Below, piece by piece: positions 6,308 through 56,836 of a stretch of 64,000 bases of DNA. Location: IMG/VR virus record IMGVR_UViG_3300030061_003198. One strand, given 5' to 3'. A program made the translations under genes and the position numbers. The notes below the pieces were generated by a model. That model had not been told where the DNA came from and did not search any database. It saw only the letters and a list, made by a program, of their open reading frames with translations. How positions within the stretch are numbered: position 1 is the stretch's first letter; every line of letters begins with the position of its first letter. The stretch comes from a virus.

Positions 6308-6318
6308 TCCTTTATCCT

Positions 6319-10235: not shown

Positions 10236-10242
10236 GAAAAAA

Positions 10243-10619: not shown

Positions 10620-10625
10620 AATACT

Positions 10626-10725: not shown

Positions 10726-10736
10726 ACTTTTTAATA

Positions 10737-24776: not shown

Positions 24777-24789
24777 AATAACTTTTTAA

Positions 24790-25404: not shown

Positions 25405-25443
25405 ATTTACCTTTTTTAATAAATATATATCAAAACTAATAAC

Positions 25444-27607: not shown

Positions 27608-27610
27608 AAT

Positions 27611-28159: not shown

Positions 28160-28160
28160 A

Positions 28161-33480: not shown

Positions 33481-34162
33481 TACTATCCTCTAATATTGAA
33501 TTCCAAGATTGTGATAAATTATAATTTACAACTTTCTGCTCTATATCACTATAATCATCTGCTTGATCTGTTAGGCAAGGATAACAACCAAATATATTAT
33601 AATTAGGATTATGATGTATTTCAGAAAGATAATAAAAATCAATATTTACACGGCTAGGACCTGACCATATGGTATTATCATAAAAGTTAACGTTATCATA
33701 TTTGTTTAGTATAGTATCATACATACTTTCATAAACAATGTATGAATGAGTTGTTTTTGCTCCGCCTATTCTAAATAAATTTTTATCGATCTTTTTATTA
33801 GTTTCAACATATCCAGTTAATAAATTGCCGCCTAAATAAAGCATATGAGGACTTAGATTATTTGTTTCAATTTGTTGTAATGATGCTAATAAAGTAGATT
33901 TAAATGTAGAAGGATTAGTAATAGTAAAATCATCTTCAAATATTAATATATTTTTATAATTATTTTCTTTAGCATGCTTTACTATATTATAATGTGATAA
34001 TGTACAACCTCGTATACCGATATTATCTTTAATAGCTGGAACTCGGTAATAATTAGTAATATTTACACTATTAAGCGCTTCTTCACATTTAGTACGCCTG
34101 TCTTGTCTTTCGTCTAGATTTATATAGACAATACAATCAATATATTCAGATAGCCAACTCAT
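33473..34162 (-). CDS. GT25-like glycosyltransferase
   Basis: YINLDERQDR, GCTLSH, ILIFEDD. Confidence 0.85.
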   Translation of the reverse strand: MSWLSEYIDCIVYINLDERQDRRTKCEEALNSVNITNYYRVPAIKDNIGIRGCTLSHYNIVKHAKENNYKNILIFEDDFTITNPSTFKSTLLASLQQIETNNLSPHMLYLGGNLLTGYVETNKKIDKNLFRIGGAKTTHSYIVYESMYDTILNKYDNVNFYDNTIWSGPSRVNIDFYYLSEIHHNPNYNIFGCYPCLTDQADDYSDIEQKVVNYNLSQSWNSILEDSND

Positions 34163-34791
34163 TAAATCGTTTCGTAATATTCGTTTTGACGTTCTTGTTT
34201 ATCTATTGTCTTTGGATGATGTAATGCTAATTCTTCATTAGGTGGCACTTGAGATAAAGCTTTATGCCCTTCTATTCTTTCATGTACTTTTCCTACCCAA
34301 TTTATATTTTTGTCTCGTTTATATATTCTACCTTGATAATCAGGCCAATTGACCCATCCTTCGTTATTAACTTGCCATTCCCATTTTTCTATATGAGTTT
34401 GAGTTAAGCCTTCAACTGTATTTATTCTTGGTATGTATATTAATTCGACACTAGGATTCATTTCTAATATAGGATGTAAATTATTAACTAGAATCTCAGA
34501 AGGTATCTCGTCTGCATCCAATTGAAATATCCAATCACAATCACGGAATAATTCATAGCCAGTATTTTTAAATGTAGCAAAATCATTATTTAATGGGGCA
34601 TATGCTAATCGAATTGAATCATCGGGAAGTAAAAATTTCTCACATAATTCCCGAACTTCATCAGTATGATTTGTCTCATCTAATAATATTCCTATACAAT
34701 CAGTATCAGAAATATTTGTTTTTAGCATTAGTAATAATCTTGCCAATTCTTCAAATTCATTACAAGCTGTTATAAAATATCCTATTTTCAT
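34162..34791 (-). CDS. GT2 glycosyltransferase
   Basis: WIFQLDADE, PRIN, WPDYQGR, VHE. Confidence 0.88.
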   Translation of the reverse strand: MKIGYFITACNEFEELARLLLMLKTNISDTDCIGILLDETNHTDEVRELCEKFLLPDDSIRLAYAPLNNDFATFKNTGYELFRDCDWIFQLDADEIPSEILVNNLHPILEMNPSVELIYIPRINTVEGLTQTHIEKWEWQVNNEGWVNWPDYQGRIYKRDKNINWVGKVHERIEGHKALSQVPPNEELALHHPKTIDKQERQNEYYETI

Positions 34792-36101
34792 ACTTTGTTC
34801 AACTTTGGTAATTTAATATTTGTATTTCCGGAATTAGGTAAACTAGATTTTGTTGTTTTATTTATTTTAGGCAACGATAATTTAGGTAACTGTAATTGCG
34901 TTGTATCAGGTATATGTTTAGTTCCAATATCAATAGTTTCAATTAACTTACTATATTTTTCTTTCATTGAATTTCTAGTGAATTTTTCATTAACAAATTT
35001 TTTCTGAGCTCTAGAACCTGGTAAAAATTTATTATATTGTTTATGAACTTCTTTTAATGCTTTTTTTGCATATCCATAATCCGGAGTAAACCATTTAGCT
35101 TCATTAATTAAAAATGGATTCTGTGCTGATTGGTGTATTGGTGTTAATCCTCCAATTAATGCAATAATATTTTCTTTTTGTAAAAAATCAGCTTGTCCCG
35201 AATAATGTGGAGCTATAATAGGCTTACCTGTTGTTGCAAACTCTAATAATGGACGACCAAACCCTTCAGCTTTAGTAAATGATATCATTGATTTAACCTT
35301 TGTATGATTATAAAGTAAATTCATTTCATCATCAGTTAAGTCTCCATGTAATAGATAAACATTAGGTAATTTTGTTTGTTTAGGGTATAGTGCACGAATT
35401 TGATTAATCTTATGTTCAATTGCATGCTTGTCAGTTACTGAATATGTTGCTCCTCCAGTTTTTAATATTAATCCTGGAACATTTGTTTTATTTTTAAATG
35501 TTTCAAAAAATACGTTAATTAGGCCACTAATATTTTTTCTATCTTCGCCCAATTGGCCTTCTAGCCAATGGCCAACAAATAAATAACAAAACTGTTCATG
35601 AATATCATTTAATATTGTTAATGATTTGTCTTTAATTGGTTTATATATAGATTGATCAAAATATTCTGATATGACTTGTATATCAGTAGATATCAACATA
35701 TTATGTTTTTTAGCAGTATTTATAAAAGTTTGTTTAGTAAACTCAGATGGTACAACAATAACATCCATTCTATTAATACATTCAATCCATTCTTTTGGAC
35801 CTACATCGCCTTCGGTACCAGCTGTTACCCCAATATTATATCTACCAACTTTTTGAAATTCATTTGGTACTGTTATCTGAACCCATATATCTGGTTGTTC
35901 TGATAATGGAAGTGGAACAAATTTACTTTGCCATTCTGTTGGTACTGGATATGTAAATGGGGTGTTGCCCCATGGCATTGAAAGTAATTTAATATCCCAT
36001 TCTGTTTCTTTTTGTTCTATTATATGACTAATAAATTCTCGCGCGTGATGTCCGTACCCCGATTGTGTAGCTACTGGACTTGAAATAACACATTTTTTCA
36101 T
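34788..36101 (-). CDS. GT-B (GT4-like) glycosyltransferase
   Basis: SGYG, DRKN, EGFGRPLLE (Ex7E). Confidence 0.88.
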   Translation of the reverse strand: MKKCVISSPVATQSGYGHHAREFISHIIEQKETEWDIKLLSMPWGNTPFTYPVPTEWQSKFVPLPLSEQPDIWVQITVPNEFQKVGRYNIGVTAGTEGDVGPKEWIECINRMDVIVVPSEFTKQTFINTAKKHNMLISTDIQVISEYFDQSIYKPIKDKSLTILNDIHEQFCYLFVGHWLEGQLGEDRKNISGLINVFFETFKNKTNVPGLILKTGGATYSVTDKHAIEHKINQIRALYPKQTKLPNVYLLHGDLTDDEMNLLYNHTKVKSMISFTKAEGFGRPLLEFATTGKPIIAPHYSGQADFLQKENIIALIGGLTPIHQSAQNPFLINEAKWFTPDYGYAKKALKEVHKQYNKFLPGSRAQKKFVNEKFTRNSMKEKYSKLIETIDIGTKHIPDTTQLQLPKLSLPKINKTTKSSLPNSGNTNIKLPKLNKV

Positions 36102-37555
36102 ACTATACCCATTTCTTTATATGTTGTTGATTCTACTTTATTTAATGTATATTTTGGTCTTTTATCTTTAGGATAATCGAATAAAAAGTCGATCATTTCG
36201 ATCATTTTATTACCCATTTGTTTTGATGTTAATCCATGAGATAAACAAAACTCCCTGCCAGCTTCGCCACATTCTTCTCTCTCTTCTGCTGGTGTAAAAT
36301 ACCATGCTGCAATTGCATCTGATACTTCTTCATATTGACATCTGTCGTCAAAAATATATGGAGTTTTAGGTGAACCTTGCATAGATCGATTAGATGGAAA
36401 TACTGGTTGTACCCATTTGCCATGCTTTTTAAAATTACCTTTATGATTGGTAGAAAATTCTCCGTTAAATCTTAACCAATTACCATCAGCATCTTCAAAT
36501 CTACATTGATCTTGTAATCCACCTGTAACATTATTAATAATTGGAGTACCTGATAACAATGATTCTGTACTACTCAATCCCCATCCTTCGTTAGACGCAA
36601 TATTAATAGTTACGTCTGCAACATTATACATTGCATTTAATTCTACTGAAGATATTCTGGCTTCTGAAAATAATATTTTACAATCTGGTGCAATATTTTC
36701 ATGTATTGTTCTAAGGTCTGTGCCATTATTATCTACAATTTGAGTATGCATTAGCAACCCTACTGTATCTTGTTTATCTTTTGGTAAATTATCTCTAAAT
36801 TTCTTGAATGCTAATATTACATCTCCAGGCTGTTTTCGCCTGATATTACGATTATTCCAAAATACTAAAAATTCAATTCCATTTTTAAGTTTTATATCAT
36901 CATGAAACTTTTTATATGTTGTATCTGTTTCGGATATAGGTTTATATATATTATGGTTCAACCCATGCGGAACATATCCAGTAATTACTTCATCCCATTC
37001 CAAATTTGGATCTGGCTTTTTAGTGTTGTCTTCTGTATCAAAGTCATACACCCCAAATCCGTTCTGTTCCAACACCTCTCGATGTATATTATCAGATTGT
37101 TTCGAAATTCCCATTATTAAGTCACAGCTACCGTAAAATGGGGCATTCCACATTGGATATGGTAGATCGTCCCAAATTGAATAATATATCAATGGAATAT
37201 TAAATGATGTTTTAATTTCATGTTCTAATGCGTATAACCATTCCCAATATCTCGGATCGGTAAAGTGGAATATAGCGTCTGGTTTTTCTGATTGAATTAT
37301 TGCAAATAATAAATTTCTATTTCCATATCCATCAGATGGTATAACTTTTACGTCTGCATCTTGAACGCCTGTTTCCCGACGAACATCTGCAGATAAATCA
37401 AACATTTTTCCAGTATCTGGATGTTTAACTGCTGCTCCTATTTGTACCCAATCATATTTGTGTACTGTATTTAAAATAATTTCTTTTGAAATGGTTCCAA
37501 TTCCAGAAGGTAATCTAAAATCGTCTGCTAATAACAGAATTTTCTTTTTTTTCAT
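36098..37555 (-). CDS. GT-B (GT4-like) glycosyltransferase
   Basis: NNRNIRRK, EGWGLSSTE (Ex7E), TGGLQDQ. Confidence 0.9.
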   Translation of the reverse strand: MKKKKILLLADDFRLPSGIGTISKEIILNTVHKYDWVQIGAAVKHPDTGKMFDLSADVRRETGVQDADVKVIPSDGYGNRNLLFAIIQSEKPDAIFHFTDPRYWEWLYALEHEIKTSFNIPLIYYSIWDDLPYPMWNAPFYGSCDLIMGISKQSDNIHREVLEQNGFGVYDFDTEDNTKKPDPNLEWDEVITGYVPHGLNHNIYKPISETDTTYKKFHDDIKLKNGIEFLVFWNNRNIRRKQPGDVILAFKKFRDNLPKDKQDTVGLLMHTQIVDNNGTDLRTIHENIAPDCKILFSEARISSVELNAMYNVADVTINIASNEGWGLSSTESLLSGTPIINNVTGGLQDQCRFEDADGNWLRFNGEFSTNHKGNFKKHGKWVQPVFPSNRSMQGSPKTPYIFDDRCQYEEVSDAIAAWYFTPAEEREECGEAGREFCLSHGLTSKQMGNKMIEMIDFLFDYPKDKRPKYTLNKVESTTYKEMGIV

Positions 37556-42300: not shown

Positions 42301-43008
42301 TTAATTTTGTAATTGAACTAACCAATAATTTGAATCAAAGTCAGTACCAGTAAAATCTATTCTTGCTAATCCATTTGATGATATATGCATTATACCTTTA
42401 TCGCCTTTGTTTGCAGTTAATACTTCCTTTAGCTTATCAGCTGAAAAACAAATTGGATCTAAATCATTCGCTGTACCGCCTATTTCAAAGGTAACATTGT
42501 CTGAATTAATAGTTGTATAATTAATAATAAATTTAATTTTACCATTTTGAACTTGTACTGCAAAATTCTTTGCGTCTGGTAATGCATTTTTAGCTTTAAT
42601 AAATTTATTAACAAATAGTTCGTCAATATCAATTGTAACCTCATATTCAGGTTCTGCATTAATTGATGGGACTGCAGGTATAACAGAAGTATCAGCTAAC
42701 ATAAAAGTCATTGTTGTGCTTCCTTCTTTTATCTTCATTGCATAATTCTTGCCTTGTGCATCATTAACTTCAATGTCAATTTTCTCGCCTACTGCAGATA
42801 ACATTTTAGTTAACGCACCAGTATGATTAATACCTAATTCTCCTGACATAAATGGATCTGTTTTCCATTTAACTTTACCTACTACGGTTTGATCTACATC
42901 TATTAATTCACAATTAACAGATTCGCCATTTGCTTTAACAGTTACAGCTTCACAGTTGCCTGCTAAGTAATATCTGTTTATAAATGATTGTAATTTACTT
43001 TTTTCCAT
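42301..43008 (-). CDS. DNA sliding clamp (gp45/PCNA-like)
   Basis: 235 aa, two-domain beta pattern, adjacent to clamp loader; F..DKLKEVL.AN, Y.LV end. Confidence 0.8.
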   Translation of the reverse strand: MEKSKLQSFINRYYLAGNCEAVTVKANGESVNCELIDVDQTVVGKVKWKTDPFMSGELGINHTGALTKMLSAVGEKIDIEVNDAQGKNYAMKIKEGSTTMTFMLADTSVIPAVPSINAEPEYEVTIDIDELFVNKFIKAKNALPDAKNFAVQVQNGKIKFIINYTTINSDNVTFEIGGTANDLDPICFSADKLKEVLTANKGDKGIMHISSNGLARIDFTGTDFDSNYWLVQLQN

Positions 43009-43020: not shown

Positions 43021-44271
43021 TTATATTTTAAAAAACTTATTAAATTGATTTGCATCAGTAGTTGATATACTATCACCACCAAATTTCTTATATGTTTTCT
43101 TGTATGTTGCATAAACATTCATTGCATTATCAGGATCTTCAAACATTGCATGCAATGATAATATAACATCATATAAGTCCTTTGGAATTGCTGTTTCTAA
43201 CAATTCAACATGATTATTTACTAGTTTGCTAACATCTTTAGCAATATTTACATATAAATGAGTATTATGTATAACCATTCTTGGCATTCCTTCTTGACTA
43301 TATCTATCTAATCCGGCTGCTGTTTGTCCACCTAAGTAATCATATGTAAAGTCTTTACAAGCTGGACAATCTATACTACATGGTACATGTCTCGATGTAT
43401 CAATATTAACTACAGGGTTTGCCATATTTGCATGTTTTTTTCTTCTATACTCATTATTCTTCGGAAAATATAACTCAGTAAATGTTTGAGTTTTATAATT
43501 ACCAGAATGAAGATATGTTCCAAATACAGGATATTGTCCTGGAGAGCTAGAATCTGTTGAAAACAATACTCTATCATCAGTTAACTTATTAACTAGCTTT
43601 TGTAATGTTGCTAATATAAAGAAGTCTGATATTTTTGATATACCTAATAAGTGTATATACTTTATATGTTTCTTTTCAAATTCTCTCTCTTTAAGCATTA
43701 ATGCTATAACATACATAAAGTCTACTAATTTCTTAGGGCCTCCAATACACCATCCATTAAATGCAAAATCTTTAAATTTATGATACCATTGTGCATATTC
43801 TTCATGATATGTACCTTGAATAACATTTAAGAAGTCTGTTTTACCTGTTTGTTTAGATTCAAAATATTTAAAGTTATCAAAACTTATATCCATTGATTCT
43901 GCGAATCGGTTTTCGTATTTTGCTCTAGGTGGAATATCTAAATTTGCTGCTACGTCTGAGTTATGTTCTAACCATTCAAATATACGCTCACGAATTGTAC
44001 TATCCCATTTTAAAGCTCCAGTTGCTATTTGGAATCCTCCTGAATCTCCAAATACTAATACCTCGTCATCTAACCCCATCTGATCCCGAAAGTCCATTTT
44101 TTTGAAATGGTGTCCTGCGGTGATTAAGAAATATGGATGTCTCCATTCTTCTGGATACTCTTTTGAAAAGAATCTAGTTGTAGTTCCATCTTCAAATTTT
44201 GTATTTTTCTTGAATGCAGATACCATACTCCCAGCCGATAATGACGGATAATATATAAAATTCTTATCCAT
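43021..44271 (-). CDS. dpdA: DNA 7-deazaguanine transglycosylase, DpdA2-like (TGT fold)
   Basis: DSGGFQ, LDIPP, NVIQG, GWCIGG, IHLLG, STDSSS, Zn site CSIDCPAC...HN; embedded in the replication operon. Confidence 0.82.
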   Translation of the reverse strand: MDKNFIYYPSLSAGSMVSAFKKNTKFEDGTTTRFFSKEYPEEWRHPYFLITAGHHFKKMDFRDQMGLDDEVLVFGDSGGFQIATGALKWDSTIRERIFEWLEHNSDVAANLDIPPRAKYENRFAESMDISFDNFKYFESKQTGKTDFLNVIQGTYHEEYAQWYHKFKDFAFNGWCIGGPKKLVDFMYVIALMLKEREFEKKHIKYIHLLGISKISDFFILATLQKLVNKLTDDRVLFSTDSSSPGQYPVFGTYLHSGNYKTQTFTELYFPKNNEYRRKKHANMANPVVNIDTSRHVPCSIDCPACKDFTYDYLGGQTAAGLDRYSQEGMPRMVIHNTHLYVNIAKDVSKLVNNHVELLETAIPKDLYDVILSLHAMFEDPDNAMNVYATYKKTYKKFGGDSISTTDANQFNKFFKI

Positions 44272-44450
44272 TAATCTACTATCTCCCATGGCTTTTCGCC
44301 TAATTTTGAAAATTGTTCAAATATAAACGTTACTATTTCAGTAGTTTGTTTATCTAAACATCCTTTTTTATCTAGTTGCTCTGCTAGAGCTTGAAATGGA
44401 GTCTCTATAGTCGACTTTATTTCTTGTATTCCTTGTACATCAATTTTCAT
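44271..44450 (-). CDS. Small protein (59 aa) coupled to dpdA
   Basis: MKIDVQGIQEIK...KPWEIVD; GAGGA upstream; TAATG overlap with dpdA. Confidence 0.65.
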   Translation of the reverse strand: MKIDVQGIQEIKSTIETPFQALAEQLDKKGCLDKQTTEIVTFIFEQFSKLGEKPWEIVD

Positions 44451-44452
44451 GT

Positions 44453-45619
44453 TTATTCCTCGTTTTTATTTAATAAATGTTTACAATATTCAGCTTCATG
44501 CCAAATATTAATTTCTTGGTCTATTCCATTTGATACAATATATCCTTCCATCTGCCTACCTAAATCTGCTAGATATGCTATATTGTAATTTGGTTGTTTT
44601 ATTTGCATTACTTCATGCAATCTAATAACTGCAGATCCTACGTTAAATGGTGTATATAATTTATCTGCTGGTATAAATTCTGGAAATGATCTAAAATTTG
44701 GAAATACCATATCACAACCAAATGCAGTCGACTCTAATACAGTCCATGATACATAATCTTGTAATGATGAATTAAATTGTATTTTTGCTTCTGCTAATTC
44801 TTTATAATATTCTTGTTTAGTCAAATTCTTTAATAATTTAAAATTAGGCATCTCATCTGCTAATTTATACAATGCATCTATTACTCCAGGTAACATTGAC
44901 TTGAACTCTTTACCAGATGTTGTTACGTGCCATTCTGCACCAGGAAACTCTGTTAAATATTGTTTAGCAACAGCCATCATGAAAAACGGATTTTTTTCTT
45001 TATCTAATCTACTAGAATATACAACTATTGATTTCTTTTTTGCTTCTTTATCATATTCTGGATATTTATCAAGAGTCATTTCTAAATGCAATGGCAATGA
45101 CACAACATGTATAGGAGATTCAAATCCTGCTTCACGCAATTGATCTTTATGAATTGTCGAACCTACAAAGATACCGGTCATTCTTTTATCTAATCCTAAT
45201 TCAAAGCCTCGCATCCAACTTCTCATTGGATATGTAAAATCATATTCATCTACACTTTGAGCATGTAGCATTGCATATATATCTACCTTTATTCCATATA
45301 AATCTAATGCATATAATATTGATTCAATACCCGGATGCCAATAATCTTGTAAAAATATTACATCGCCATTATTAACTTCGTCTTTATTTAACATATCAAG
45401 AAAATTGCTACATTGACTCATAGCAAACTTACCTCTACCGACTGCATCTAATACAGCTCCTACCTTTATTTGCTGATCAGGATCAAATTCTCCTTCAACA
45501 TCAATAAATTCTACTTTATCTGAATATGGCTCGAACGTTGCCGGCATCCATTCTTTTGATAACTGATATGTATATCTTGCCTTTAAAGGCTCTAGTCCAA
45601 AATAAAATACTTTTTTCAT
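44453..45619 (-). CDS. GT-B glycosyltransferase within the deazaguanine cluster
   Basis: LEPLKARYT, HAQS.D.YDF, SRLDKEKNP, SSLQDYVSWTVLE, PNFRSFPE; ATGA-coupled to dpdL. Confidence 0.82.
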   Translation of the reverse strand: MKKVFYFGLEPLKARYTYQLSKEWMPATFEPYSDKVEFIDVEGEFDPDQQIKVGAVLDAVGRGKFAMSQCSNFLDMLNKDEVNNGDVIFLQDYWHPGIESILYALDLYGIKVDIYAMLHAQSVDEYDFTYPMRSWMRGFELGLDKRMTGIFVGSTIHKDQLREAGFESPIHVVSLPLHLEMTLDKYPEYDKEAKKKSIVVYSSRLDKEKNPFFMMAVAKQYLTEFPGAEWHVTTSGKEFKSMLPGVIDALYKLADEMPNFKLLKNLTKQEYYKELAEAKIQFNSSLQDYVSWTVLESTAFGCDMVFPNFRSFPEFIPADKLYTPFNVGSAVIRLHEVMQIKQPNYNIAYLADLGRQMEGYIVSNGIDQEINIWHEAEYCKHLLNKNEE

Positions 45620-45957
45620 CTTTCTATTATTGCTCCATTTTCCCAATCTTCCCAAACCTCTACTTTATATAGATTATCATTTTGTTCTAATAACCATTCG
45701 CCTATATCTTCACAACTCATTCTACCAAATTGTAATATATTTCCATCAAAGTTAGTTCTCAATTGTTTTTTTAATTTTCTTTGCATTAAGATAAATTCTT
45801 CATCTCTATCTGTATGTGTTACTTTTGCATAACAACGAAATCCGAACATATGCCTATGACTATCGGATAAAAATCCTACTTCTGGAAATATTTCTTTAGC
45901 TTCTGGCCAACAATGGAACCCTTCTAAGCTAAATGATACTACTACTGAATATTTCAT
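45616..45957 (-). CDS. dpdL: QueD-paralogous T-fold protein, DpdL-like (putative CDG decarboxylase)
   Basis: EGFHCW, LSDSHRHMF (LxxxHRHxF), RD.EF, SCE, V.ED.ENGA. Confidence 0.72.
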   Translation of the reverse strand: MKYSVVVSFSLEGFHCWPEAKEIFPEVGFLSDSHRHMFGFRCYAKVTHTDRDEEFILMQRKLKKQLRTNFDGNILQFGRMSCEDIGEWLLEQNDNLYKVEVWEDWENGAIIER

Positions 45958-46472
45958 ATTTTTTCTTTATTAACATGTAAATATTTTAAATATTTTTCAT
46001 TCATATTATTATAATAACTTGTTTTCATTAAATTATCATGTGCTTCATTTAAAACAGATGCTTTAGCTATATTAATTAAAAAATATGGTGCTAAACTTCT
46101 TGCATTAAATCCATTTATATTTAATTTATCATTTGGATTGAAACAAATACACTTTAAATGTTTATATCCATTTTCACGCAAAGTTTTATTAATAAAATCT
46201 TGATAACCAGCTGTATCTTTTTGTTTTAACTCAATATCAGAAACTTGTACAAATAATGCACTATCGTAATCTGTATTTTCGAAGCTTTCTACCATTTCTA
46301 TTAATGTATTTTGAATTGGATCAAATTTTTCTATTAATAATTTATTTTTATCTAGTTCTCCTCCAACAAATGGACAAGGAGGCATATTACCATATTCTTC
46401 CCTAGGAGTTCTTAGTATATTAATATAATCTAACACCCGAGTTTTAAAGTTTGTATATGGGCATTTACTCAT
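45954..46472 (-). CDS. Hypothetical protein (PPCPF motif)
   Basis: CPY...MPPCPFV; ATGA-coupled to dpdL. Confidence 0.65.
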   Translation of the reverse strand: MSKCPYTNFKTRVLDYINILRTPREEYGNMPPCPFVGGELDKNKLLIEKFDPIQNTLIEMVESFENTDYDSALFVQVSDIELKQKDTAGYQDFINKTLRENGYKHLKCICFNPNDKLNINGFNARSLAPYFLINIAKASVLNEAHDNLMKTSYYNNMNEKYLKYLHVNKEKI

Positions 46473-46924
46473 TAAATTTCTTCGTCAAATTTATAGTTAT
46501 CTGGACTTATTTCCATCATATTGCATTTAGTTACTTGATGAACTCTATACCAGCCTGCGTCAATTGATAATGTGTCAGTGTCTTTAAGCATTTCTAAATA
46601 AGGATCACTGATTCTATAAATAATATGACATCTATTAAATAGATCCGGCTTAATTGTATCTAATGTGTCTTTAGTAGCTTCTATAGTAACAGCACTTTTA
46701 GATTCATTTAAAATACCTCTAATTGTTTCTAGATATTTTTCGTCCTTCATAGACTTTTTCATAAATTCAATTGTAAAATAATAATGAGGATATGATATTA
46801 TAGATTTTACTTCTAAACCATAAGTGCTTCGCATATTATGATTTAAATCTCTTACGAAGAAAGTCATAAGATCTGAATATCGACCTTCTACTTCTCTCCC
46901 TTTCCATTGATGTTTACCGTACAT
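46472..46924 (-). CDS. Hypothetical protein, first gene of the dpd operon
   Basis: W.GREVEG...TFFV...HYYF...Y..DE; follows promoter 46936-46964. Confidence 0.7.
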   Translation of the reverse strand: MYGKHQWKGREVEGRYSDLMTFFVRDLNHNMRSTYGLEVKSIISYPHYYFTIEFMKKSMKDEKYLETIRGILNESKSAVTIEATKDTLDTIKPDLFNRCHIIYRISDPYLEMLKDTDTLSIDAGWYRVHQVTKCNMMEISPDNYKFDEEI

Positions 46925-46935
46925 ATTTTTTCTAT

Positions 46936-46964
46936 ATTATAATTAATTTTATTGAATTATCCAA
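46936..46964 (-). promoter_or_regulatory. Phage promoter TTGGAT-N17-TATAAT
   Basis: Recurrent motif; -35 overlaps polB stop. Confidence 0.75.
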
Positions 46965-49476
46965 ATGAAAAGAATTTATTCATATTATTATTTTCAGGAA
47001 GTTTATCCCAATTCATAGATGCATAAAAATCATCTAATTTGCCACGAATCTCTCTATCAAATATCTTATTCCTATCAATATATTTTTCTACAAATTCTGT
47101 TAATTCTCTTGGATCATCATAACCACGAAGGGCAATAGAATCAAACCCCATAGCGTTTGTTTTAAGATATGCCCATTTAATTTTATCTCCATTCTGAATT
47201 TCAGGAATTACTTTACTTCTTCTATTAATACCTAAATGTTTTAACATATCATTGTAATTAATTGCAGATTTAACATGAATCGGAGTTCCAGACAGATATC
47301 CAGATAATGGCTTTCTACCTTTTGTATACTTTGTGACATTTTTAACACCTGTATTCTTCATAACATCTAATATTGGAGAATCTTGTATTTTGTCTTTAAA
47401 ATCCATTATTAAATTAGTTGTGTCATTTTTTGACTTTTCTTTGAGTACATACCATAATGTTTCTTTCATTATAGTTTTAAACTCTGTAGGGAAAGATGAT
47501 CTTACTACGTCTAGACCTTTAATATCCATTTTATCTGTGGGTTTTCCTTCTTTAAAGATTACCCATTGAGCATATCTCTTTTTTGCTATCCATAGACCAG
47601 ATTTAGCAACATATTCTTGTTTAATTTGCCATCGATGATCAAATGTATTATGAAAGTGAACTGCATATTGATCATACATTTTGTTAACATGAGCTTGTAT
47701 CTCAGACGCAATGTCATTTGTTTTTTCAATCATAAACTTTTCATCTGATTCATCAAATCCGGGATATCTTTTTTCTATAAGAGGTAAACTAGATACAAAT
47801 GTTGAATCTGTATCCGTATAAAATGAAAATTCGGCTTTGTTGCCATTAGCGTTAATAAAATAATCTTTGCCAACTTCCTTTTCATAATATTTATTAATAA
47901 CTTTTGCTGAAAATTTAATAACACTTTGGCCAGTTGCTGTAATAGCTCCTGCATTGTCTAAGTCATGAAATCTAAATGTCTTTAATCCTAATACTCCATA
48001 AAATGAATTTAACAATACTTTTTGTGTTAATTGCATTGCATCATAAAATTTATACTTATCACTACCAACTTCATGATTATCTCGCTCATTCTTAAATTTA
48101 ACACGTTCGTCAAACCATTTCTCTAATATCTTTGGTAAGAATCCTTTACTTCTTGTATCATATACTACTCCGTTACTTGCAACAGTAAATTTATTATCAA
48201 TTAACCATTGTTTAATATCTGGTATAGTTTGGCCATTACATTGTACACTAACAGCTTCTTTACTTAATAATGATTCTTGTTTCCAATTTGGAATAACGCC
48301 TATTTTTGTTTCTGGAGATATATTAAGACTCATAATAATTGAAGGATACAGAGAAGTTAAATCTAAATCATATATCCATTTATATAATCCTGGAATTGGA
48401 GGCATAACATATGCGCCTGCTAATTTATTCTGCTCTTCGTCTTCAACAAATCTAAATTGTTTATTTGGAGCTACCAGCCCGTTTCTTTTTAAATCTACAA
48501 TAGCGGCGCCGTCTAGATATTTAGATGCATAATAAACGTCTTCATATGGAACATGGCCTTTGTGACATATTGTTCTTGCTAAGTTAATTAATTGTAATTT
48601 TTCATCTAACTCATATACAAGATCAACATCCGTCATATTATATTCTATAAACTTGTTAATATCTGAAACAAATAAATCGTCTAAGTCGCCATCATATTCA
48701 ATTTTACCTTTGCCTAATTCTGTTTTACCTACAGTGTCTAATCTATAATTAGGAAGTTCTGAATATGTAAAGTTCTTATATAATTTAATATAATCTAAAC
48801 TCGATACGCCAAATATTTTATATTTTTCGCGATGCTTATTCCATTCTACAATCCCAGCTGGTGATAATTTATTTGCAGACTTAGGACCTAACACTTTTTT
48901 AATCCTATTAATAAGATAAGGAATATCATATCCATCAGTATTCCAACCAGTTATAACAGTAGGTTGTATTTCTGAAAAATAGTTAATAAATTTAATTAAT
49001 AAGTTAGCTTCATTGTCAAATACCTCAACAGTATAGTTATCACCATATATAATATCATCAGATAATCTATTTTCTTTGTCTAATACTAATACTCTTCTAT
49101 CTTTACCAACTTTGTCATAATATGCTATCGATGTTATTTCGGTTCTAACATCTTGCGGAGTAGAATAACCATCTGCGTCTTTTGCTGTTTCAATATCAAA
49201 GAAGAAATCAGCATGGCCAGTCGAGACTAAATCAGATTCATAATATAAGTCTATTAATGTTCTAACCTCTTCATTTAAGTCAGATTCATATGCATCTGAA
49301 TTATCTCTATGATTACCTGGAGTCTTTGCTAACTTAGTTCCATTTAATGATATATATTCTCCACTCGGATCTGGAATATACCCATATGGCTTAAACTTAA
49401 AAGTTTTATGACCTAATTCGTCATCCCATACGTGCATTGTGCTTGTTTTTTTATGATATGCTATATTCTGATACAT
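46957..49476 (-). CDS. polB: Family B DNA polymerase with 3'-5' exonuclease
   Basis: FDIET, GWN..YD, DLTSLYPS, KVLLNSFYG, YTDTDS, KKRY; C-terminal PIP-like MNKFF. Confidence 0.97.
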   Translation of the reverse strand: MYQNIAYHKKTSTMHVWDDELGHKTFKFKPYGYIPDPSGEYISLNGTKLAKTPGNHRDNSDAYESDLNEEVRTLIDLYYESDLVSTGHADFFFDIETAKDADGYSTPQDVRTEITSIAYYDKVGKDRRVLVLDKENRLSDDIIYGDNYTVEVFDNEANLLIKFINYFSEIQPTVITGWNTDGYDIPYLINRIKKVLGPKSANKLSPAGIVEWNKHREKYKIFGVSSLDYIKLYKNFTYSELPNYRLDTVGKTELGKGKIEYDGDLDDLFVSDINKFIEYNMTDVDLVYELDEKLQLINLARTICHKGHVPYEDVYYASKYLDGAAIVDLKRNGLVAPNKQFRFVEDEEQNKLAGAYVMPPIPGLYKWIYDLDLTSLYPSIIMSLNISPETKIGVIPNWKQESLLSKEAVSVQCNGQTIPDIKQWLIDNKFTVASNGVVYDTRSKGFLPKILEKWFDERVKFKNERDNHEVGSDKYKFYDAMQLTQKVLLNSFYGVLGLKTFRFHDLDNAGAITATGQSVIKFSAKVINKYYEKEVGKDYFINANGNKAEFSFYTDTDSTFVSSLPLIEKRYPGFDESDEKFMIEKTNDIASEIQAHVNKMYDQYAVHFHNTFDHRWQIKQEYVAKSGLWIAKKRYAQWVIFKEGKPTDKMDIKGLDVVRSSFPTEFKTIMKETLWYVLKEKSKNDTTNLIMDFKDKIQDSPILDVMKNTGVKNVTKYTKGRKPLSGYLSGTPIHVKSAINYNDMLKHLGINRRSKVIPEIQNGDKIKWAYLKTNAMGFDSIALRGYDDPRELTEFVEKYIDRNKIFDREIRGKLDDFYASMNWDKLPENNNMNKFFSFG

Positions 49477-49706: not shown

Positions 49707-50741
49707 TTATATTATAAGTAATTTTTTTTGTTTTTCCAATACCGGTAAAATAGCTAACTCTTTTGCTTTAGCTTCTACAACGATGTCTAGATTTTCAACG
49801 TTATAAGTATTAGGAGTATTCACAATATAATCTGCATGAGCAGGCTCTTTGATCTTGCTAAATATTTTGTATTCTTTTTCAAAGGTCGGCCATAAGTGTA
49901 ATTCTGATAATGGTATATTATTATGATTCAACATTTTTTCTATCAATAACTTTTGCTCTTGTCGTCTAGACTCAGAGTAATGAGTACATTGAGTAACACC
50001 ATGTTTATCCCAGGTAGACTTTGCCATAAAGAATGCTTGACGTTCTGTTAAATCGCCTGTACAGAAGGTATGATGCCAATAGTCAAATGTAATAGGAATA
50101 CCAATTTCTTGGTGTATAAGGTCGTATAGATGCCTTACGCTGTACATAGATGCCTTGTCATCGTTTTCTAAAACTAATCTAGCTTTTAGGGAGTCAGATA
50201 GTCGTTGCCAAGTCTTGATCCACCGCTTAGCAGTAGCTTCACGATCACCATAAGCACCAGCTACATGAATATTGATCTTGTTATGAAACGATGGCTCATA
50301 CCCCATAAGATCAAACATTTCAGAATGTCGTTCTAAGCCAATAATACTTTTTTCTACAACATCTTGTCTAGGGGAACCTAATACATGGAACGGACCAGGA
50401 TGTGTAGTTAATCTATGACCATGTTGCCTAGCAAATTCACCTGCAGCGAATAAGTGCTGAGCAATTTCTTCGTAGTCTGGAAGATCATGTAATTCGTATT
50501 GATCATGCCATGGAAATAATTCAGAGCCTACACGAAATAACGTAATACCATGCTCTTCATTCCATTTGAGATAAGTGAGTAAATCTTTTGCATTGTCTAA
50601 TGCTTTGTCACTAATAAGTTGTAAATTATTAGGATACCAAGAAGCTTTTCTAGCCGTACGGGAAGTAGTAACTCTACCGCCTAATTTCTTGGGTCTATTC
50701 GTTAGTGTTGCGTTAACGCACGCATAGCCATATCTAATCAT
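49707..50741 (-). CDS. uvsE: UV-damage endonuclease
   Basis: GYACVN, FRVGSELFP, HPG.F, NIH, LENDD, FDYWHH, HAD, EAKAKE. Confidence 0.95.
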   Translation of the reverse strand: MIRYGYACVNATLTNRPKKLGGRVTTSRTARKASWYPNNLQLISDKALDNAKDLLTYLKWNEEHGITLFRVGSELFPWHDQYELHDLPDYEEIAQHLFAAGEFARQHGHRLTTHPGPFHVLGSPRQDVVEKSIIGLERHSEMFDLMGYEPSFHNKINIHVAGAYGDREATAKRWIKTWQRLSDSLKARLVLENDDKASMYSVRHLYDLIHQEIGIPITFDYWHHTFCTGDLTERQAFFMAKSTWDKHGVTQCTHYSESRRQEQKLLIEKMLNHNNIPLSELHLWPTFEKEYKIFSKIKEPAHADYIVNTPNTYNVENLDIVVEAKAKELAILPVLEKQKKLLII

Positions 50742-50782: not shown

Positions 50783-51445
50783 TTATGAGTAAGATTGTAA
50801 TAATCGTAATACTTCATTTAATGCAGAATGTCTATGGTTGTCTTTTAAAGTAACAGCATGAACAAAATTAGATCCTTTAACTTTAGGTACATCATGTATT
50901 GCCGAATCATTACTAAATTTTAAATCAATTTGTTGCGGGTCTCCTGTTAATATCATTGTGGATCCTTTACCTAATCTACCTAATACCATTCCTAACTGTT
51001 GTTTGGTTAAATTTTGAAATTCATCGATGATTACACACGAATTTTCAAAAGTTCTTCCTCTAAAATGAGATAATGATACTAATTCAATATTTTCATCATT
51101 TTCCATTTTTTCTAATATTTGAGGTTTATTATATACCTTTCTCATATTAGACCGAATTGGAACTAACCATGGCTCCATTTTTTCAGTTAATGAGCCTGGT
51201 AAATACCCATTATCTTCATTTGATACAGTTGGTCTGGTAATAATGATTTGATTAACACTCCTTTTGAAAAACATATCCAATGCAACTTGAACTGCTAACA
51301 ATGTTTTGCCACTTCCTGCTTTACCTATAATAAAATTATATGGATGCATTAATATTTCAGCTTTTGCTAATTTTTGTTCTTCCGATAATGAAATTGAAAA
51401 TCTTACATTACCTTTCGGTGGAGTCTTATCTTTGTTATCTGGCAT
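50783..51445 (-). CDS. phoH: PhoH-family ATPase
   Basis: GKAGSGKT, ITRP, GYLPG, RGRTF, DEFQN, GDPQQID. Confidence 0.95.
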   Translation of the reverse strand: MPDNKDKTPPKGNVRFSISLSEEQKLAKAEILMHPYNFIIGKAGSGKTLLAVQVALDMFFKRSVNQIIITRPTVSNEDNGYLPGSLTEKMEPWLVPIRSNMRKVYNKPQILEKMENDENIELVSLSHFRGRTFENSCVIIDEFQNLTKQQLGMVLGRLGKGSTMILTGDPQQIDLKFSNDSAIHDVPKVKGSNFVHAVTLKDNHRHSALNEVLRLLQSYS

Positions 51446-51446: not shown

Positions 51447-51989
51447 TTATATACTTTTTATTTTTATTTTTATATCATGGGGAGCTGTTTCAGTTCCGCC
51501 AAAATACGGCCATGTATAATATTTAGAATTGTTAGATCTGGAACATGGTCTATTAATAAATATTTGAGTGTTGTCTATTACAATTTTATATTCTGCATCT
51601 GTGAATTGTATACTACAATTAATTATGGTATTTAAATCTACACATTTAATTTTATCAAATTCAAAATTACCATCATGTTTAAACCAATGTAGTTCCAAAC
51701 TATCATTTAACCAGCGCCAACCAATTCGAATTGATGACTCGGTATGAAAATCGCCACAATCGCTTAGGCCATATAATTTATTAATATCAAATTGATTTAT
51801 AGGATCTGTGGTTGTATATATAGCAGATGAATCAAATATTACTTGAAAATTTAAACAATTTGATCTAGTAAATTTCATTCCATAGTTTGATTTATGATTT
51901 CCTTGCTTAATGGTATATGTTTTAAACCCATTTTCATCGATTTTCTTACATCCAACAAGTATTAGAAATAATATGATATAATTTTTCAT
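51447..51989 (-). CDS. Lipoprotein (beta-sandwich)
   Basis: Lipobox ILVGC followed by KKIDE; DINKLYGLSDC...RIGWRW...PYFGG.E.AP. Confidence 0.7.
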   Translation of the reverse strand: MKNYIILFLILVGCKKIDENGFKTYTIKQGNHKSNYGMKFTRSNCLNFQVIFDSSAIYTTTDPINQFDINKLYGLSDCGDFHTESSIRIGWRWLNDSLELHWFKHDGNFEFDKIKCVDLNTIINCSIQFTDAEYKIVIDNTQIFINRPCSRSNNSKYYTWPYFGGTETAPHDIKIKIKSI

Positions 51990-52000: not shown

Positions 52001-52300
52001 TTAGTTTGACACCATTGATATTTCCATTTCTCTTACTAGAATATAGTCAATGTTATCAAATTTTACTTTTTTCTGTGTACCTAAATTATTTTTACTAATT
52101 AATACAACGTCATCTTTTGAGACTGACATTGGTATTCTATTTCCTGTTTGTGTAAATAATCCAGGTCCAACTGCGATTACATCGGCATATACAAATTCTT
52201 CGTCATACCCAGCATCTACTAATATAATTCCAGATTCTGTTTTATCAGATTTTTCTTGTTCTCGGATCAATACTTGATCTCCCATTGGTTGCATTTTCAT
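52001..52300 (-). CDS. groES: Co-chaperonin GroES
   Basis: PMGDQVLI, TESGIIL, VIAVGPG, LVREMEI. Confidence 0.9.
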   Translation of the reverse strand: MKMQPMGDQVLIREQEKSDKTESGIILVDAGYDEEFVYADVIAVGPGLFTQTGNRIPMSVSKDDVVLISKNNLGTQKKVKFDNIDYILVREMEISMVSN

Positions 52301-52309: not shown

Positions 52310-52441
52310 TTATTTTGTGTTTTCTAATATATTTCGTAATTTATCTATCATTTCCTGAACTTCATCAGGATCCATTGTTATTGCACAACAAATATTAACA
52401 TTTTCTTCTATCTCATTTAATAGTTCTAATGCTTCATCCAT
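52310..52441 (-). CDS. Small protein (43 aa)
   Basis: MDEALELLNEIEENVNICCAITMDPDEV...; TAATG overlap with queE. Confidence 0.55.
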   Translation of the reverse strand: MDEALELLNEIEENVNICCAITMDPDEVQEMIDKLRNILENTK

Positions 52442-53226
52442 TATACTCCTCTTTCAGTGTCATATGCTATAATATGATCTCTTCCTGTCATATTATAGCC
52501 ATGTTCTGCTACCATTTCAAATACTATAGGATACATCTCCATTAATGTTTTTCTAGTATCTCCAGCCGGCATTACATAAGTTTTATGTTTAGGAATATCC
52601 ATTTCAATTCTAAATTCTTCTATTTCTTTTAGATTCTTTTCAGTGCCATCCCATACAGGTTTAAAATGATAATCTTTATGATAATCTAATGTCTTACGCA
52701 TTGCATCTTTATTCATTCTTAATCTATTATGAACTTTAATCATTCGTTCATCTGTAACTGATCCATTAGGAGTTATTGCACCTAAGACAGGAACTGAATT
52801 AGAAAATTTAGGAGATAAAGATATTAAGTCAATTGGATAATCAGTTTCGAGAAAATGACTTCCTTCTGTTTCAATAGTAACTAATATTCCCCTTTCGTTT
52901 GCAAAGTGCATAATTTCATTTACTAATGCTGGATGCATTGTTGGTGATCCACCAGTTAACATCATTTCTTTTACATGAGGATTTTCATCATATATTTTAA
53001 TAATATCATTAAATGTAAATGTACCTTTTTCTGGATGAATACTTGTATACCAACTATCACACCAACCACCTTCTCCAAAGTAGCATCTATGTGTACATCC
53101 TGTTGTTCTAACTGCTATTGTGGGTCTTCCAAATCTTGACCCTTCTGATTGAACACATCTATATATTTCTAATACAGGAATTGTTTTATTATAATCTTTA
53201 AGTCTTTTTAATTTTTTATTCACCAT
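52441..53226 (-). CDS. queE: 7-carboxy-7-deazaguanine synthase (radical SAM)
   Basis: EIY..VQSEG...GRP...VR..GCTHRC...WCDS, LTGG.P, IETEG, SLSPK. Confidence 0.92.
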   Translation of the reverse strand: MVNKKLKRLKDYNKTIPVLEIYRCVQSEGSRFGRPTIAVRTTGCTHRCYFGEGGWCDSWYTSIHPEKGTFTFNDIIKIYDENPHVKEMMLTGGSPTMHPALVNEIMHFANERGILVTIETEGSHFLETDYPIDLISLSPKFSNSVPVLGAITPNGSVTDERMIKVHNRLRMNKDAMRKTLDYHKDYHFKPVWDGTEKNLKEIEEFRIEMDIPKHKTYVMPAGDTRKTLMEMYPIVFEMVAEHGYNMTGRDHIIAYDTERGV

Positions 53227-53680
53227 AATATGCTGCATTTTTACCGTGCTCCATGAACTTAACTTTTGTAACTCTTACTCTGTTATCTGTTTCTGTTTTA
53301 ACAAAGTCATTTAACTTGTTATAAATATATTCAGCAAACTTTTCGGCGCCTGTTGCTTCGATCCATCTCAATTGTATAATACCTCTTTCATTCATTTCTT
53401 CTAAAACATCAACTGCAGGATCGTCTTTTGCTGCTACTACAGTATGGTCAAACATATAATCCATCCAAGCTTTAGGTTGCATTCCATCTATAAGAGTTTT
53501 AGCTCTTTTCATTCCTCCAAAGTCCCAAACCCAATTTCTGTGGTCTAATTCACCTTCAAAATATACTTTAAATGATATTCCATACCCATGTAAAAATCTA
53601 CAATGTGTATTTTCTGCTTTCCATTGACGAAACACTGTACTAAATCCGTCAAAAACTTTACTTGATTGATGTTTTCCCAT
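53216..53680 (-). CDS. queD: 6-carboxy-tetrahydropterin synthase
   Basis: HCRFLHGY, WDFG, FDH, AE, EHGKN.A. Confidence 0.9.
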   Translation of the reverse strand: MGKHQSSKVFDGFSTVFRQWKAENTHCRFLHGYGISFKVYFEGELDHRNWVWDFGGMKRAKTLIDGMQPKAWMDYMFDHTVVAAKDDPAVDVLEEMNERGIIQLRWIEATGAEKFAEYIYNKLNDFVKTETDNRVRVTKVKFMEHGKNAAYYGE

Positions 53681-53836: not shown

Positions 53837-54856
53837 TTATGATATATGTATTAAGCTTGACCATAATTCATGCGGAATATCACTAGAAAATTTGCTATTA
53901 GGTGCTAATATTACTGATACTGCGTCATGTGAGTGTAGCGATTCTTGATGTGAGCAAATAACTCTAAAATCTTTAATTCTTTTATCCTCAATTAATTGTT
54001 CATACAATAATCTAGCTGCATCTTCAACAAATTTTAAATATGATCCATTTAATTCAGCAAATGCCATTTCATCTTCACGTTTAACAACAACTTGAGTTTC
54101 AGTACGTAAAGCTTTTTCACAAATTTCTTGTAGATCTTCAATCCATACTAATTCATCAAACTCTACTGATATTCTTGCAACAGATCTTTGTGAATGTGAT
54201 ACTGTAGCTTTATTCCTATATTTTCTAGCATATTCTGCTAATTCATATGAACAAGGACATGCAGATGAATATACAAAGTCAAAGTGAAGTATCTTTTTAA
54301 AAGTTCCTTTGTCGTCAATATTGCCTTCTAATGTTACATTATAATATTGATATCCAGCATTATCAGATCTTAATGATGGTTGTAATATTGGATATGAAAA
54401 ATGTAATCCAATCTTAGCATCAAATGATTCTAAATCATCTTTATACTTTAATAAAATAGTATCTAATTCTCCGAAGACATAATCATCTTTAAACTTATAA
54501 AATGATCGCATAATACGAGACATGTTAATACCTTTTTTATGTGCTGCTAAAGAAACATTTCCAGTTACTTTAGTTTCTAATTCAATATCACCGCCATCAC
54601 GCTTTTTATATTTTAAAGGAAGACGAAAATTATGAATACCAACTTGTTGAATAGCTACAGGAGCTCCTTGTATTAAAGAAGAAGGGCCATTTTGTAAATC
54701 TGGAAATGTTTCTATATCATTTTTAGTTGGTTTATAGTCTGAATCATAATCTCGTTCAGGTTCATGATAATTTACTGAATGTTTATTTTCTTCTGCTATT
54801 TTATGAGATTCGACATCATCGAACCACTCATATTTAGTATTATTTTTTTCTGCCAT
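53837..54856 (-). CDS. folE2: GTP cyclohydrolase IB
   Basis: PDLQ, QVGI, KGINMSR, SACPCS, HSQRS, VKREDE, FVEDAAR, ESLHSHDA. Confidence 0.95.
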   Translation of the reverse strand: MAEKNNTKYEWFDDVESHKIAEENKHSVNYHEPERDYDSDYKPTKNDIETFPDLQNGPSSLIQGAPVAIQQVGIHNFRLPLKYKKRDGGDIELETKVTGNVSLAAHKKGINMSRIMRSFYKFKDDYVFGELDTILLKYKDDLESFDAKIGLHFSYPILQPSLRSDNAGYQYYNVTLEGNIDDKGTFKKILHFDFVYSSACPCSYELAEYARKYRNKATVSHSQRSVARISVEFDELVWIEDLQEICEKALRTETQVVVKREDEMAFAELNGSYLKFVEDAARLLYEQLIEDKRIKDFRVICSHQESLHSHDAVSVILAPNSKFSSDIPHELWSSLIHIS

Positions 54857-54857
54857 A

Positions 54858-55172
54858 TTATTTACTATCATGTTTTAATTTTAAGCTACTTAATAATTCG
54901 GATACTGATTTAACAGTTTCTAAATTAATTGTTAACCATTTTTTATATTTTTTTTGTTGTATAATCAATTGACTACATTTTTCATATTCTTCAAGATGTT
55001 CTCCTACTGAGATTAAATATGATAAAAATTCATCTAGGTTTTTATTATAATCGAGTAAAACAGCGTCATTGAGCATATGTAGCTCTATACCATCTTTATC
55101 TGACAATGTATTTACACATTTGTAAAACATATTTCGGTCAACTTTATTTGGATCTAAAAAACTAAAACTCAT
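54858..55172 (-). CDS. Hypothetical protein with E.YEKC helical-hairpin motif
   Basis: GEHLEEYEKCSQL. Confidence 0.6.
   Translation of the reverse strand: MSFSFLDPNKVDRNMFYKCVNTLSDKDGIELHMLNDAVLLDYNKNLDEFLSYLISVGEHLEEYEKCSQLIIQQKKYKKWLTINLETVKSVSELLSSLKLKHDSK

Positions 55173-55183: not shown

Positions 55184-56836
<1,653 letters not shown>

Follow-up and report, generated by a model that had tools for sequence, protein, structure and literature searches.

A conserved phage gene cassette that may attach a sugar to 7-deazaguanine in DNA

Six coupled genes between polB and the sliding clamp

We analyzed a 64,000-nucleotide stretch of viral DNA (IMG/VR record IMGVR_UViG_3300030061_003198; hereafter, the window) and focused on a cassette of six genes that includes a predicted glycosyltransferase (GT), a DpdL-type protein, and a DpdA2-like guanine transglycosylase. 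We propose that this cassette takes part in the modification of DNA with 7-deazaguanines. The window is AT-rich (~30% GC), and the region that we studied contains minus-strand genes only. The window encodes a T4-like replication set (polB, sliding clamp, clamp loader, dUTPase, gp32-like, RecA/UvsX-like, and a DnaB-type helicase) as well as ribonucleotide reductase (RNR) and GroEL/GroES, and the host is probably a flavobacterium. When we compared the cassette to GenBank phages at the DNA level, there was no match. Its open reading frames (ORFs) and the spacer upstream of them contain:

46936-46963, minus strand: sigma-70-like consensus match (TGGATA-16-TATAAT, 10/12) in the 32-nt spacer between polB and p150; a candidate promoter only
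46472-46924, minus strand: p150, a conserved protein without a known family
45954-46472, minus strand: p172, an insert specific to this lineage, in a slot whose content varies between relatives
45616-45957, minus strand: DpdL-type paralog of QueD, 113 aa, a predicted decarboxylase of 7-carboxy-7-deazaguanine (CDG), identified from phrog_17812 and its motif
44453-45619, minus strand: GT4-class (retaining GT-B) glycosyltransferase, 388 aa, identified from its predicted fold; its ATG overlaps the stop codon of DpdL
44271-44450, minus strand: 59-aa acidic ORF, kept in the closest relatives only
43021-44289 (likely start 44271, 416 aa), minus strand: DpdA2-like guanine transglycosylase with the fold of tRNA-guanine transglycosylase (TGT), identified from PF01702, its fold, and hhalign

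We confirmed the packed run of six ORFs with ATGA and TAATG overlaps that the first-pass annotation (made from the sequence alone, without database searches) had described: all six are on the minus strand at the same coordinates. The identities of the flanking genes also agree, with polB (46957-49476) on one side and the sliding clamp (42301-43008), dUTPase, and clamp loader on the other. The junctions are TAATG for p150/p172, ATGA for both p172/DpdL and DpdL/GT, a 2-nt gap between the GT and the 59-aa ORF, TAATG between the 59-aa ORF and the TGT-like gene, and a 12-nt gap before the clamp. We moved the start of the GT from a TTG at 45655 (400 aa) to the ATG at 45619 (388 aa), because its homologs align from residue 13-16. 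Similarly, the TGT-like protein most likely starts at 44271 (416 aa instead of 422), overlapping the stop of the 59-aa ORF, because its homologs start there. The single promoter that had been placed at 46936-46964 is a candidate only: it matches 10 of 12 consensus positions, and sigma-70-like matches are no more common in this region than in shuffled sequence (50 found vs. 56 expected), so the match at 46963-46936 is not evidence of a promoter.

Linkage of the glycosyltransferase to DpdL and the DpdA2-like gene

We compared 80 IMG/VR loci from each of two clades of GTs, and we considered a locus to be well-flanked if it extended for at least 3 kb on both sides of the GT. In the clade that includes the window, the usual order is polB, p150, a variable slot, DpdL, the GT, sometimes the 59-aa ORF, the DpdA2-like gene, clamp, and dUTPase. 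DpdL and/or the DpdA2-like gene lies in the flanks of the GT in 33/33 well-flanked loci, and the DpdA2-like gene is at most 300 nt from the GT in 66 of the 80 loci. One subgroup of this clade has no DpdL at the locus but encodes it elsewhere in the genome. The GTs of the second clade are ~30% identical to those of the first, and the order there is polB, clamp, DpdA2-like, DpdL, GT, QueD, and QueE; both DpdL and the DpdA2-like gene are beside the GT in all 57 well-flanked loci. The trio is also present in cultured phages of unrelated hosts: Acidovorax phage ACP17, Pseudomonas phage PA5oct, Sinorhizobium phage Phosso, Synechococcus phage BUCT-ZZ01, Burkholderia phage BCSR5, and Xanthomonas phages X1/BUDD.

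Of 14 lineages with DpdL, seven (including the clade of the window) have both the GT and the A2-type TGT, and the other seven have neither. (If the lineages are treated as independent, then p ~3e-4 for this pairing, Fisher's exact test.) Searches of whole records found neither gene in phiST, D479, MA9V-3, Roos, Bakedbeans, RHph_I1_18, or Ahp1. The phages pf16, nt-1, and VH7D, which carry QueC and DpdA2, have no DpdL or GT by tblastn. This pattern of presence and absence indicates that the GT marks one combination, namely DpdL with a DpdA2-type enzyme and without QueC.

A failure of the GT to be conserved beside dpdA and dpdL in relatives had been named beforehand as grounds for dropping the idea. 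Instead, the GT was in that neighborhood in every well-flanked locus of both clades, so the linkage stands. We are quite confident that the GT is not a passenger and that it functions as part of the deazaguanine pathway.

This pattern also bears on another explanation, in which the GT does not act on the deazaguanine and is in the module only for co-expression with replication genes. Its acceptor could then be a base in tRNA, a different base in DNA, or a protein of the phage or its host (the transglycosylase, for example). The acceptors of GT4 enzymes are very diverse, and the window also encodes GDP-sugar enzymes and several GTs in a large and separate glycan island, which would fit. However, the linkage to DpdL and the DpdA2-like gene survives both reshuffled gene orders and unrelated hosts, and the presence or absence of these genes is all-or-none. 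Among other DNA bases, we considered hydroxymethylcytosine (hmC) and hydroxymethyluracil (hmU) and rejected them, as we found no hydroxymethylase of the thymidylate synthase family, which would be the source of the acceptor, in the closest complete relative. Overall, a different acceptor seems somewhat unlikely to us.

The TGT-fold protein resembles DpdA2

The TGT-like protein matches PF01702 (28.4 bits), and its AlphaFold (AF2) model, with a predicted local distance difference test (pLDDT) score of 85.6, matches the TGT fold (Foldseek E = 6.5e-10, probability 1.0). By VIA, the best alignments are to human QTRT1 (Z = 24.2 over 311 residues, root-mean-square deviation or rmsd 3.7) and bacterial TGTs (Z = 22-23). 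Single-sequence searches with this protein or with the GT against PDB sequences gave nothing meaningful, and the profile for the TGT-like family had only a marginal match, to ArcTGT. Its earlier label as "DpdA2-like" is upheld by hhalign against an alignment that contains DpdA2 from VH7D and nt-1 (98.1%, E = 1e-13, 174 columns). Also, jackhmmer connects the protein to those from ACP17, X1, BCSR5, BUCT-ZZ01, and PA5oct, and the transglycosylase of ACP17 is 34-36% identical to the DpdA2 proteins of nt-1 and VH7D. The motifs GDSGGFQ (D82) and TDSSSP (D246) are invariant in 23 TGT-like sequences, and both aspartates align to residues that are invariant in the DpdA2 alignment (D76 and D266). By analogy to TGT, D82 and D246 are probably catalytic. 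DpdA2 of VH7D and nt-1 was shown to insert deazaguanines into DNA, after replication. The sequence comparisons support the view that the TGT-fold protein is a divergent relative of these experimentally validated DNA transglycosylases.

The only glycosylated 7-deazaguanines that we know of are mannosyl- and galactosyl-queuosine, which are found in mammalian tRNA, and GTDC1 is a GT4-class enzyme. Mammals glycosylate the queuosine in tRNA via QTMAN (GTDC1) and QTGAL (PMC11755703), which resembles our proposal in that a 7-deazaguanine derivative in a nucleic acid is glycosylated. As the fold of the TGT-like protein is closest to tRNA-guanine transglycosylases, it and the GT could instead act on tRNA of the host or the phage, where the product would be a glycosylated base similar to queuosine. 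But the profile comparison groups the protein with DpdA2, whose members insert bases into DNA, and the zinc site of TGT and ArcTGT (CxCxxC...H) is missing: there is no conserved cysteine in the aligned region, and only the HNL motif is kept. Furthermore, in PA5oct, the DNA itself is modified at G. The mammalian enzymes differ as well, as they act on tRNA and their acceptor is a hydroxyl of queuosine's cyclopentenediol; and DUF3524, the N-terminal domain of GTDC1, is present in 0 of 93 members of the GT family. We think that a role in tRNA modification is very improbable.

Supply of CDG and its conversion by DpdL

Three genes for the synthesis of CDG are 6-8 kb upstream of the cassette:

53837-54871, minus strand: FolE2-type GTP cyclohydrolase I, which starts the synthesis of CDG (PF02649, E = 3e-69)
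53216-53680, minus strand: QueD, 6-carboxytetrahydropterin synthase with a T-fold (PF01242, E = 3e-13; 66% identity to QueD from phiST)
52441-53238, minus strand: QueE, radical SAM CDG synthase (PF04055; 61% identity to QueE from phiST)

We did not find QueC in five related IMG/VR records, of which three are at least 95% complete; its absence is judged on these relatives because the window's own genome is known over 64 kb only. DpdL is present in all five.

The 113-aa protein of the cassette matches phrog_17812 (E = 3e-22) and, along its whole length, shares 40% identity with DpdL from phiST. Its motif LSDSHRHMF fits the signature LxxxHRHxF, which replaces the CxxxHGH of QueD, and the hidden Markov model for the DpdL family does not match any QueD ORF. 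This motif was defined, and the protein was named, by Cui, Hutinet et al., who studied the Cellulophaga phage phiST (PMC10516641). The statement in the first-pass annotation that DpdL of a Cellulophaga phage had been linked to the decarboxylation of CDG was thus correct, with the proviso that the decarboxylase activity is the paper's prediction and not the result of an assay. When dpdL and dpdA from either phiST or ACP17 were expressed in E. coli, no 2'-deoxy-7-deazaguanosine (dDG) was formed, and the authors suggested that further enzymes are needed (PMC10516641).

In three loci, DpdL is the C-terminal part of a longer ORF of 286-383 aa (L096, from Vibrio phage Bakedbeans, 6221-7372; L094, from MA9V-3, 6452-7333; and L079, 9135-9992). 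The N-terminal parts have no match in Pfam and may be fused pathway partners.

The glycosyltransferase has a GT4 fold and a conserved donor site

The AF2 model of the GT (pLDDT 96.6) is a canonical retaining GT-B enzyme of the GT4 class, with two Rossmann domains, which agrees with its original description as a GT-B glycosyltransferase. By VIA, it is most similar to BshA (Z = 26.5, rmsd 3.0 over 312 residues). MshA, sucrose-phosphate synthase (SPS), SenB, LmbT, and tetrahydrobiopterin (BH4) glucosyltransferases have Z = 22-26, and the top 50 structural matches are all GT4-type enzymes. All 93 sequences from the GT family have R204 and K209, and at least 90% of them have E296. We take R204 and K209 to be the diphosphate-binding pair, and E296 to be the conserved glutamate, of the GT4 site for the nucleoside diphosphate (NDP) sugar. 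The second glutamate of the classic EX7E motif is not conserved in this family. The window's GT itself has no match in Pfam, but 57 of its 93 relatives match PF00534 (Glycos_transf_1; best E = 4.5e-10). Given the model and the conserved residues, the GT looks active.

The GT family has 989 representatives at 50% identity and is essentially restricted to phages. A pattern scan of 185,579 prokaryote species genomes, which used an alignment of 17 sequences, found it on just four short contigs of metagenome-assembled genomes (MAGs). The short contigs L100, L101 (from a MAG labeled Candidatus Nitrosopelagicus), and L103 (from an Altiarchaeales MAG), which had been assigned to archaeal MAGs, encode the phage GT, with 39-94% identity, and are most likely mis-binned phage contigs. 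In one representative of the GT family (P0313, 726 aa), the sequence is split by a domain that resembles the splicing domain of inteins (PF14890, E = 9e-6, which is below the cut-off).

p150 is conserved but p172 and the 59-aa ORF are local

The first-pass annotation had suggested that two uncharacterized ORFs of the cassette may be additional components of the pathway. For p150 this is borne out by conservation: of 80 related IMG/VR loci, 55 encode it. Its conserved motifs are GxEVEGR, YPHYYFTIE, VTIEA, NRCHIIYR, and PDxYKFD. Using hhalign, it is also similar to small ORFs that adjoin the GT in BCSR5, X1, ACP17, and L078 (95.7%, E = 8.6e-9). The small ORF from ACP17 belongs to a family of 172-aa proteins; 54 loci of the second clade encode such a protein, with DpdL on one side and the DpdA2-like gene on the other. 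A direct comparison of p150 to this family gives a weak match (probability 24%, E = 8e-4), so their relationship is transitive, via the ACP17 ORF. p150 does not match any family in Pfam (all E > 0.01) or any Atlas family at a usable score. We also considered whether p150 could be a stripped-down QueE, but the alignment by hhalign covered just 21 columns, those of the QGEG..F.R motif, with a probability of 1%; the corresponding probability for the 172-aa proteins of the second clade is 0.2%. The sequences do not support either identification.

The other two ORFs are not conserved in this way. p172 is present in 3 of 80 related loci, and its best clues are Atlas feature matches to DUF1415/DUF6875 clusters (score 0.95) and a weak match to phrog_28122. 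Other relatives have either a cytidylyltransferase-like ORF in its slot (13 loci) or nothing. The 59-aa ORF is present in 14 related loci (56-68% identity), all of them from the closest relatives, and is missing from loci in which the GT directly overlaps the DpdA2-like gene. In short, p150 travels with the GT and the DpdA2-like gene, and p172 and the 59-aa ORF are local extras.

Genes for sugar nucleotides within the modules

Many of the modules also contain genes for altering sugars. An SDR epimerase/dehydratase (short-chain dehydrogenase/reductase family) is present in 59 of the 80 loci from the second clade and is within 1.5 kb of the GT in 51 of them. Cytidylyltransferase-like genes are present in 26 loci from the second clade, where a cupin-type domain is fused to them, and in 12-13 loci from the first clade, where they occupy the slot of p172. 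The module of L112 includes an NDP-hexose C-methyltransferase. BUCT-ZZ01 and L066/L067 have a second GT. (The pairs are at 9956-11173 and 15194-16312 in L066 and at 5010-6353 and 8001-9167 in L003, which is BUCT-ZZ01; such modules might add either of two sugars or make a disaccharide.)

BCSR5 and X1 encode a PP-loop ATPase and a putative deacetylase similar to LmbE/PIG-L, immediately upstream of their GT and p150-like gene; the two genes are at 6158-7525 in L006, which is BCSR5, and at 6338-7526 in L007, which is X1. The ATPase belongs to the PAPS_reduct family, in the QueC superfamily. The LmbE-like proteins have the motifs APHVDDE and HDDH, but their Pfam score of 24.3 bits is below the curated cut-off of 28.2 bits. 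This pair suggests that carboxylate activation and an amino-sugar are involved in these two phages. The synthesis of mycothiol (MshA/MshB), bacillithiol (BshA/BshB), and the glycosylphosphatidylinositol (GPI) anchor (PIG-A/PIG-L) relies on a GT4 enzyme and then on an LmbE deacetylase, and BshA and MshA are the best structural matches for the window's GT (Z = 24.6-26.5). On the other hand, the window lacks such a deacetylase, and the acceptor here would not be the precursor of a thiol cofactor.

A proposed pathway to a sugar-bearing deazaguanine

The best explanation for the cassette is that it is the tailoring-and-insertion half of a QueC-less pathway for 7-deazaguanine DNA modification in a T4-like marine phage. 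FolE2, QueD, and QueE would make CDG, as is established for these families, and DpdL would turn CDG into the 7-deazaguanine core, as the literature predicts. The DpdA2-like enzyme, by its homology to the assayed DpdA2 proteins of VH7D and nt-1, would swap guanine in DNA for the deazaguanine. The GT4 enzyme would move a sugar from an NDP-sugar onto the deazaguanine, either as the free base or in DNA, and p150 may be an additional partner. As a result, virion DNA would contain a sugar-bearing deazaguanine, which would block restriction and whose sugar would differ between phage lineages. We propose this product tentatively and with slightly less than even confidence, as we infer the acceptor, the identity of the sugar, and its point of attachment.

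Still more tentatively, we predict that hundreds of aquatic and soil phages, including PA5oct, ACP17, X1, BCSR5, BUCT-ZZ01, and Phosso, have a glycosylated 7-deazaguanine in their DNA that they make using a module of DpdL, a GT4 enzyme, a DpdA2-like enzyme, and a p150-like protein, and that NDP-sugar enzymes within the module diversify the sugar. PA5oct, which carries the trio of GT, DpdL, and DpdA2-like genes, is consistent with the proposed product: its DNA resists several restriction enzymes with G-containing sites and is a target of END nucleases, which sense modified G (PMC12191111). A full-text search of the literature did not find any paper that links a glycosyltransferase to deazaguanines in DNA, and no characterized glycosylated deazaguanine in DNA turned up, in keeping with what the first-pass annotation had stated.

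Several observations weigh against this proposal. First, plain 7-deazaguanine lacks a hydroxyl, so the attachment would be unusual. The linkage might be a C- or N-glycoside; otherwise, it would have to be an acyl glycoside on CDG or to follow a hydroxylation that we have not seen. Second, phiST, which has no GT, reaches 100% plain dDG (PMC10516641). Third, the GT is acidic (pI 5.1, or 4.8 for the N-terminal domain; the family's median is 5.75), which argues against direct action on DNA, and its nearest structural neighbors use small-molecule acceptors, which also argues against DNA but not against the free base. On both counts, the GT is more likely to act on the free base, before insertion, than on DNA. 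Fourth, we saw no specific similarity of the GT to the DNA glucosyltransferases of T4. A structural comparison with the alpha- and beta-glucosyltransferases of T4 had been suggested at the outset, and it did not set the GT apart from generic GT4 enzymes: no DNA alpha- or beta-GT of the T4 type is among the top 50 PDB rows, and in BFVD, an annotated DNA alpha-GT from a cyanophage is at rank 37 (E = 1e-8), among generic GT4 matches. The analogy to the glucosyl-hmC of T4 survives as an idea about function, with a phage GT-B enzyme that places a sugar on a non-canonical base as protection from restriction. The protein itself has a generic GT4 fold, and its proposed substrate is a purine without a hydroxymethyl acceptor.

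If the sugar does not remain on the base, then the GT, together with p150, might be needed to make or to insert plain 7-deazaguanine via the DpdA2-type enzyme. The sugar would be a transient carrier or an activated intermediate, or it would be removed after insertion. This would fit with the failure of dpdL and dpdA alone to give dDG in E. coli, with the occurrence of the GT only where DpdL is paired with a DpdA2-type and not a DpdA3-type enzyme, and with the acidity of the GT and the lack of an obvious acceptor hydroxyl. However, a discarded sugar would not readily account for the tailoring genes that vary between lineages (the epimerase/dehydratase, the C-methyltransferase, the deacetylase-like protein, and the second GT), and a sugar that is kept in the final product would account for them more easily. 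We also did not find a hydrolase that would remove the sugar. We consider a transient sugar unlikely.

Another point against our proposal is that phosphoribosyltransferase (PRT) genes are in or near several modules, which hints at a route at the level of nucleotides. In this scenario, the PRT makes a deazaguanine nucleotide, the GT and other enzymes act on precursors, the polymerase incorporates a modified dNTP, and the role of the TGT-like protein is secondary. PRT genes are inside the modules of PA5oct (L004, 10339-10773) and BUCT-ZZ01 (L003, 3093-3554), are directly upstream of polB in L076 (6523-7044) and L071 (6299-6814), and are present in 4 of 5 genomes that are related to the window. 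The module also sits among genes for replication and nucleotide metabolism (such as dUTPase and RNR). But there is no PRT in the window's cassette or among the window's ORFs that we scanned, and in the closest complete relative, the PRT is far from the module. Also, the DpdA2-like gene is the gene that is most tightly linked to the GT, and it retains both of the catalytic aspartate motifs; and the DpdA2 proteins of VH7D and nt-1 work on DNA after replication. Incorporation by the polymerase seems quite improbable.

Comparison to known systems

The closest described system for DpdL is that of phiST (PMC10516641). Like the window's relatives, phiST has FolE, QueD, and QueE without QueC, a DpdL with the LxxxHRHxF motif, and pathway genes that adjoin DNA polymerase genes. 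Unlike them, it encodes MazG, its transglycosylase is a short DpdA3 (259 aa), and its dpdL and dpdA are separated by an ATPase-like gene. There is no GT, p150, or DpdA2-type enzyme anywhere in its record, and it fully replaces G with plain dDG.

For the transglycosylase, the closest assayed proteins are the DpdA2 of VH7D and nt-1, which belong to the same family, have a similar length, lie beside folE, and come from T4-like phages. But these phages carry QueC (with QueF or ArcS) and have no DpdL or GT, and the bases in their DNA are preQ0, preQ1, mdPreQ1, or G+. The window's protein has also diverged so far that tblastn does not reach VH7D or nt-1.

All of the DNA glycosylations that we know of are on hydroxymethyl-pyrimidines. 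The eight 7-deazaguanines that have been described in phages are all small and sugar-free bases (PMC10516641). If our proposal is correct, then it would add a new class of DNA base, with the first sugar-bearing purine in DNA. It would also explain why dpdL and dpdA alone failed in E. coli, and it would define the G modification of the jumbo phage PA5oct, which was tested against defense systems. Such bases would provide new substrates and tools for studies of restriction, of glycosylase-based defense, and of sequencing. The abundance of the module in freshwater and marine viromes means that it would affect how such DNA is recovered, cut, and sequenced. Since several of the phages that carry it are already in culture, the prediction is directly testable.

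Other features of the window

Several genes lie around those for CDG synthesis. A 180-aa ORF (51447-51989) has no family match. Cpn10 (GroES, PF00166) is at 52001-52300, just downstream of queE and between queE and the 180-aa ORF, and a GroEL-type chaperonin (PF00118) is at 55205-56827. Between the CDG genes and polB are a UvdE UV-damage endonuclease and a PhoH-like ATPase (49707-50741 and 50783-51445).

The glycan island is at 23377-37555, or 7-20 kb downstream of the cassette, and includes:

25444-26199 and 26882-27607: GT2 enzymes
28906-29886: GDP-mannose 4,6-dehydratase
29879-31033: DegT-type aminotransferase
31017-31904: epimerase/reductase
36098-37555: GT1-family enzyme

This island could supply a GDP-deoxy- or GDP-amino-sugar donor to the GT of the cassette as well as to a virion glycan.

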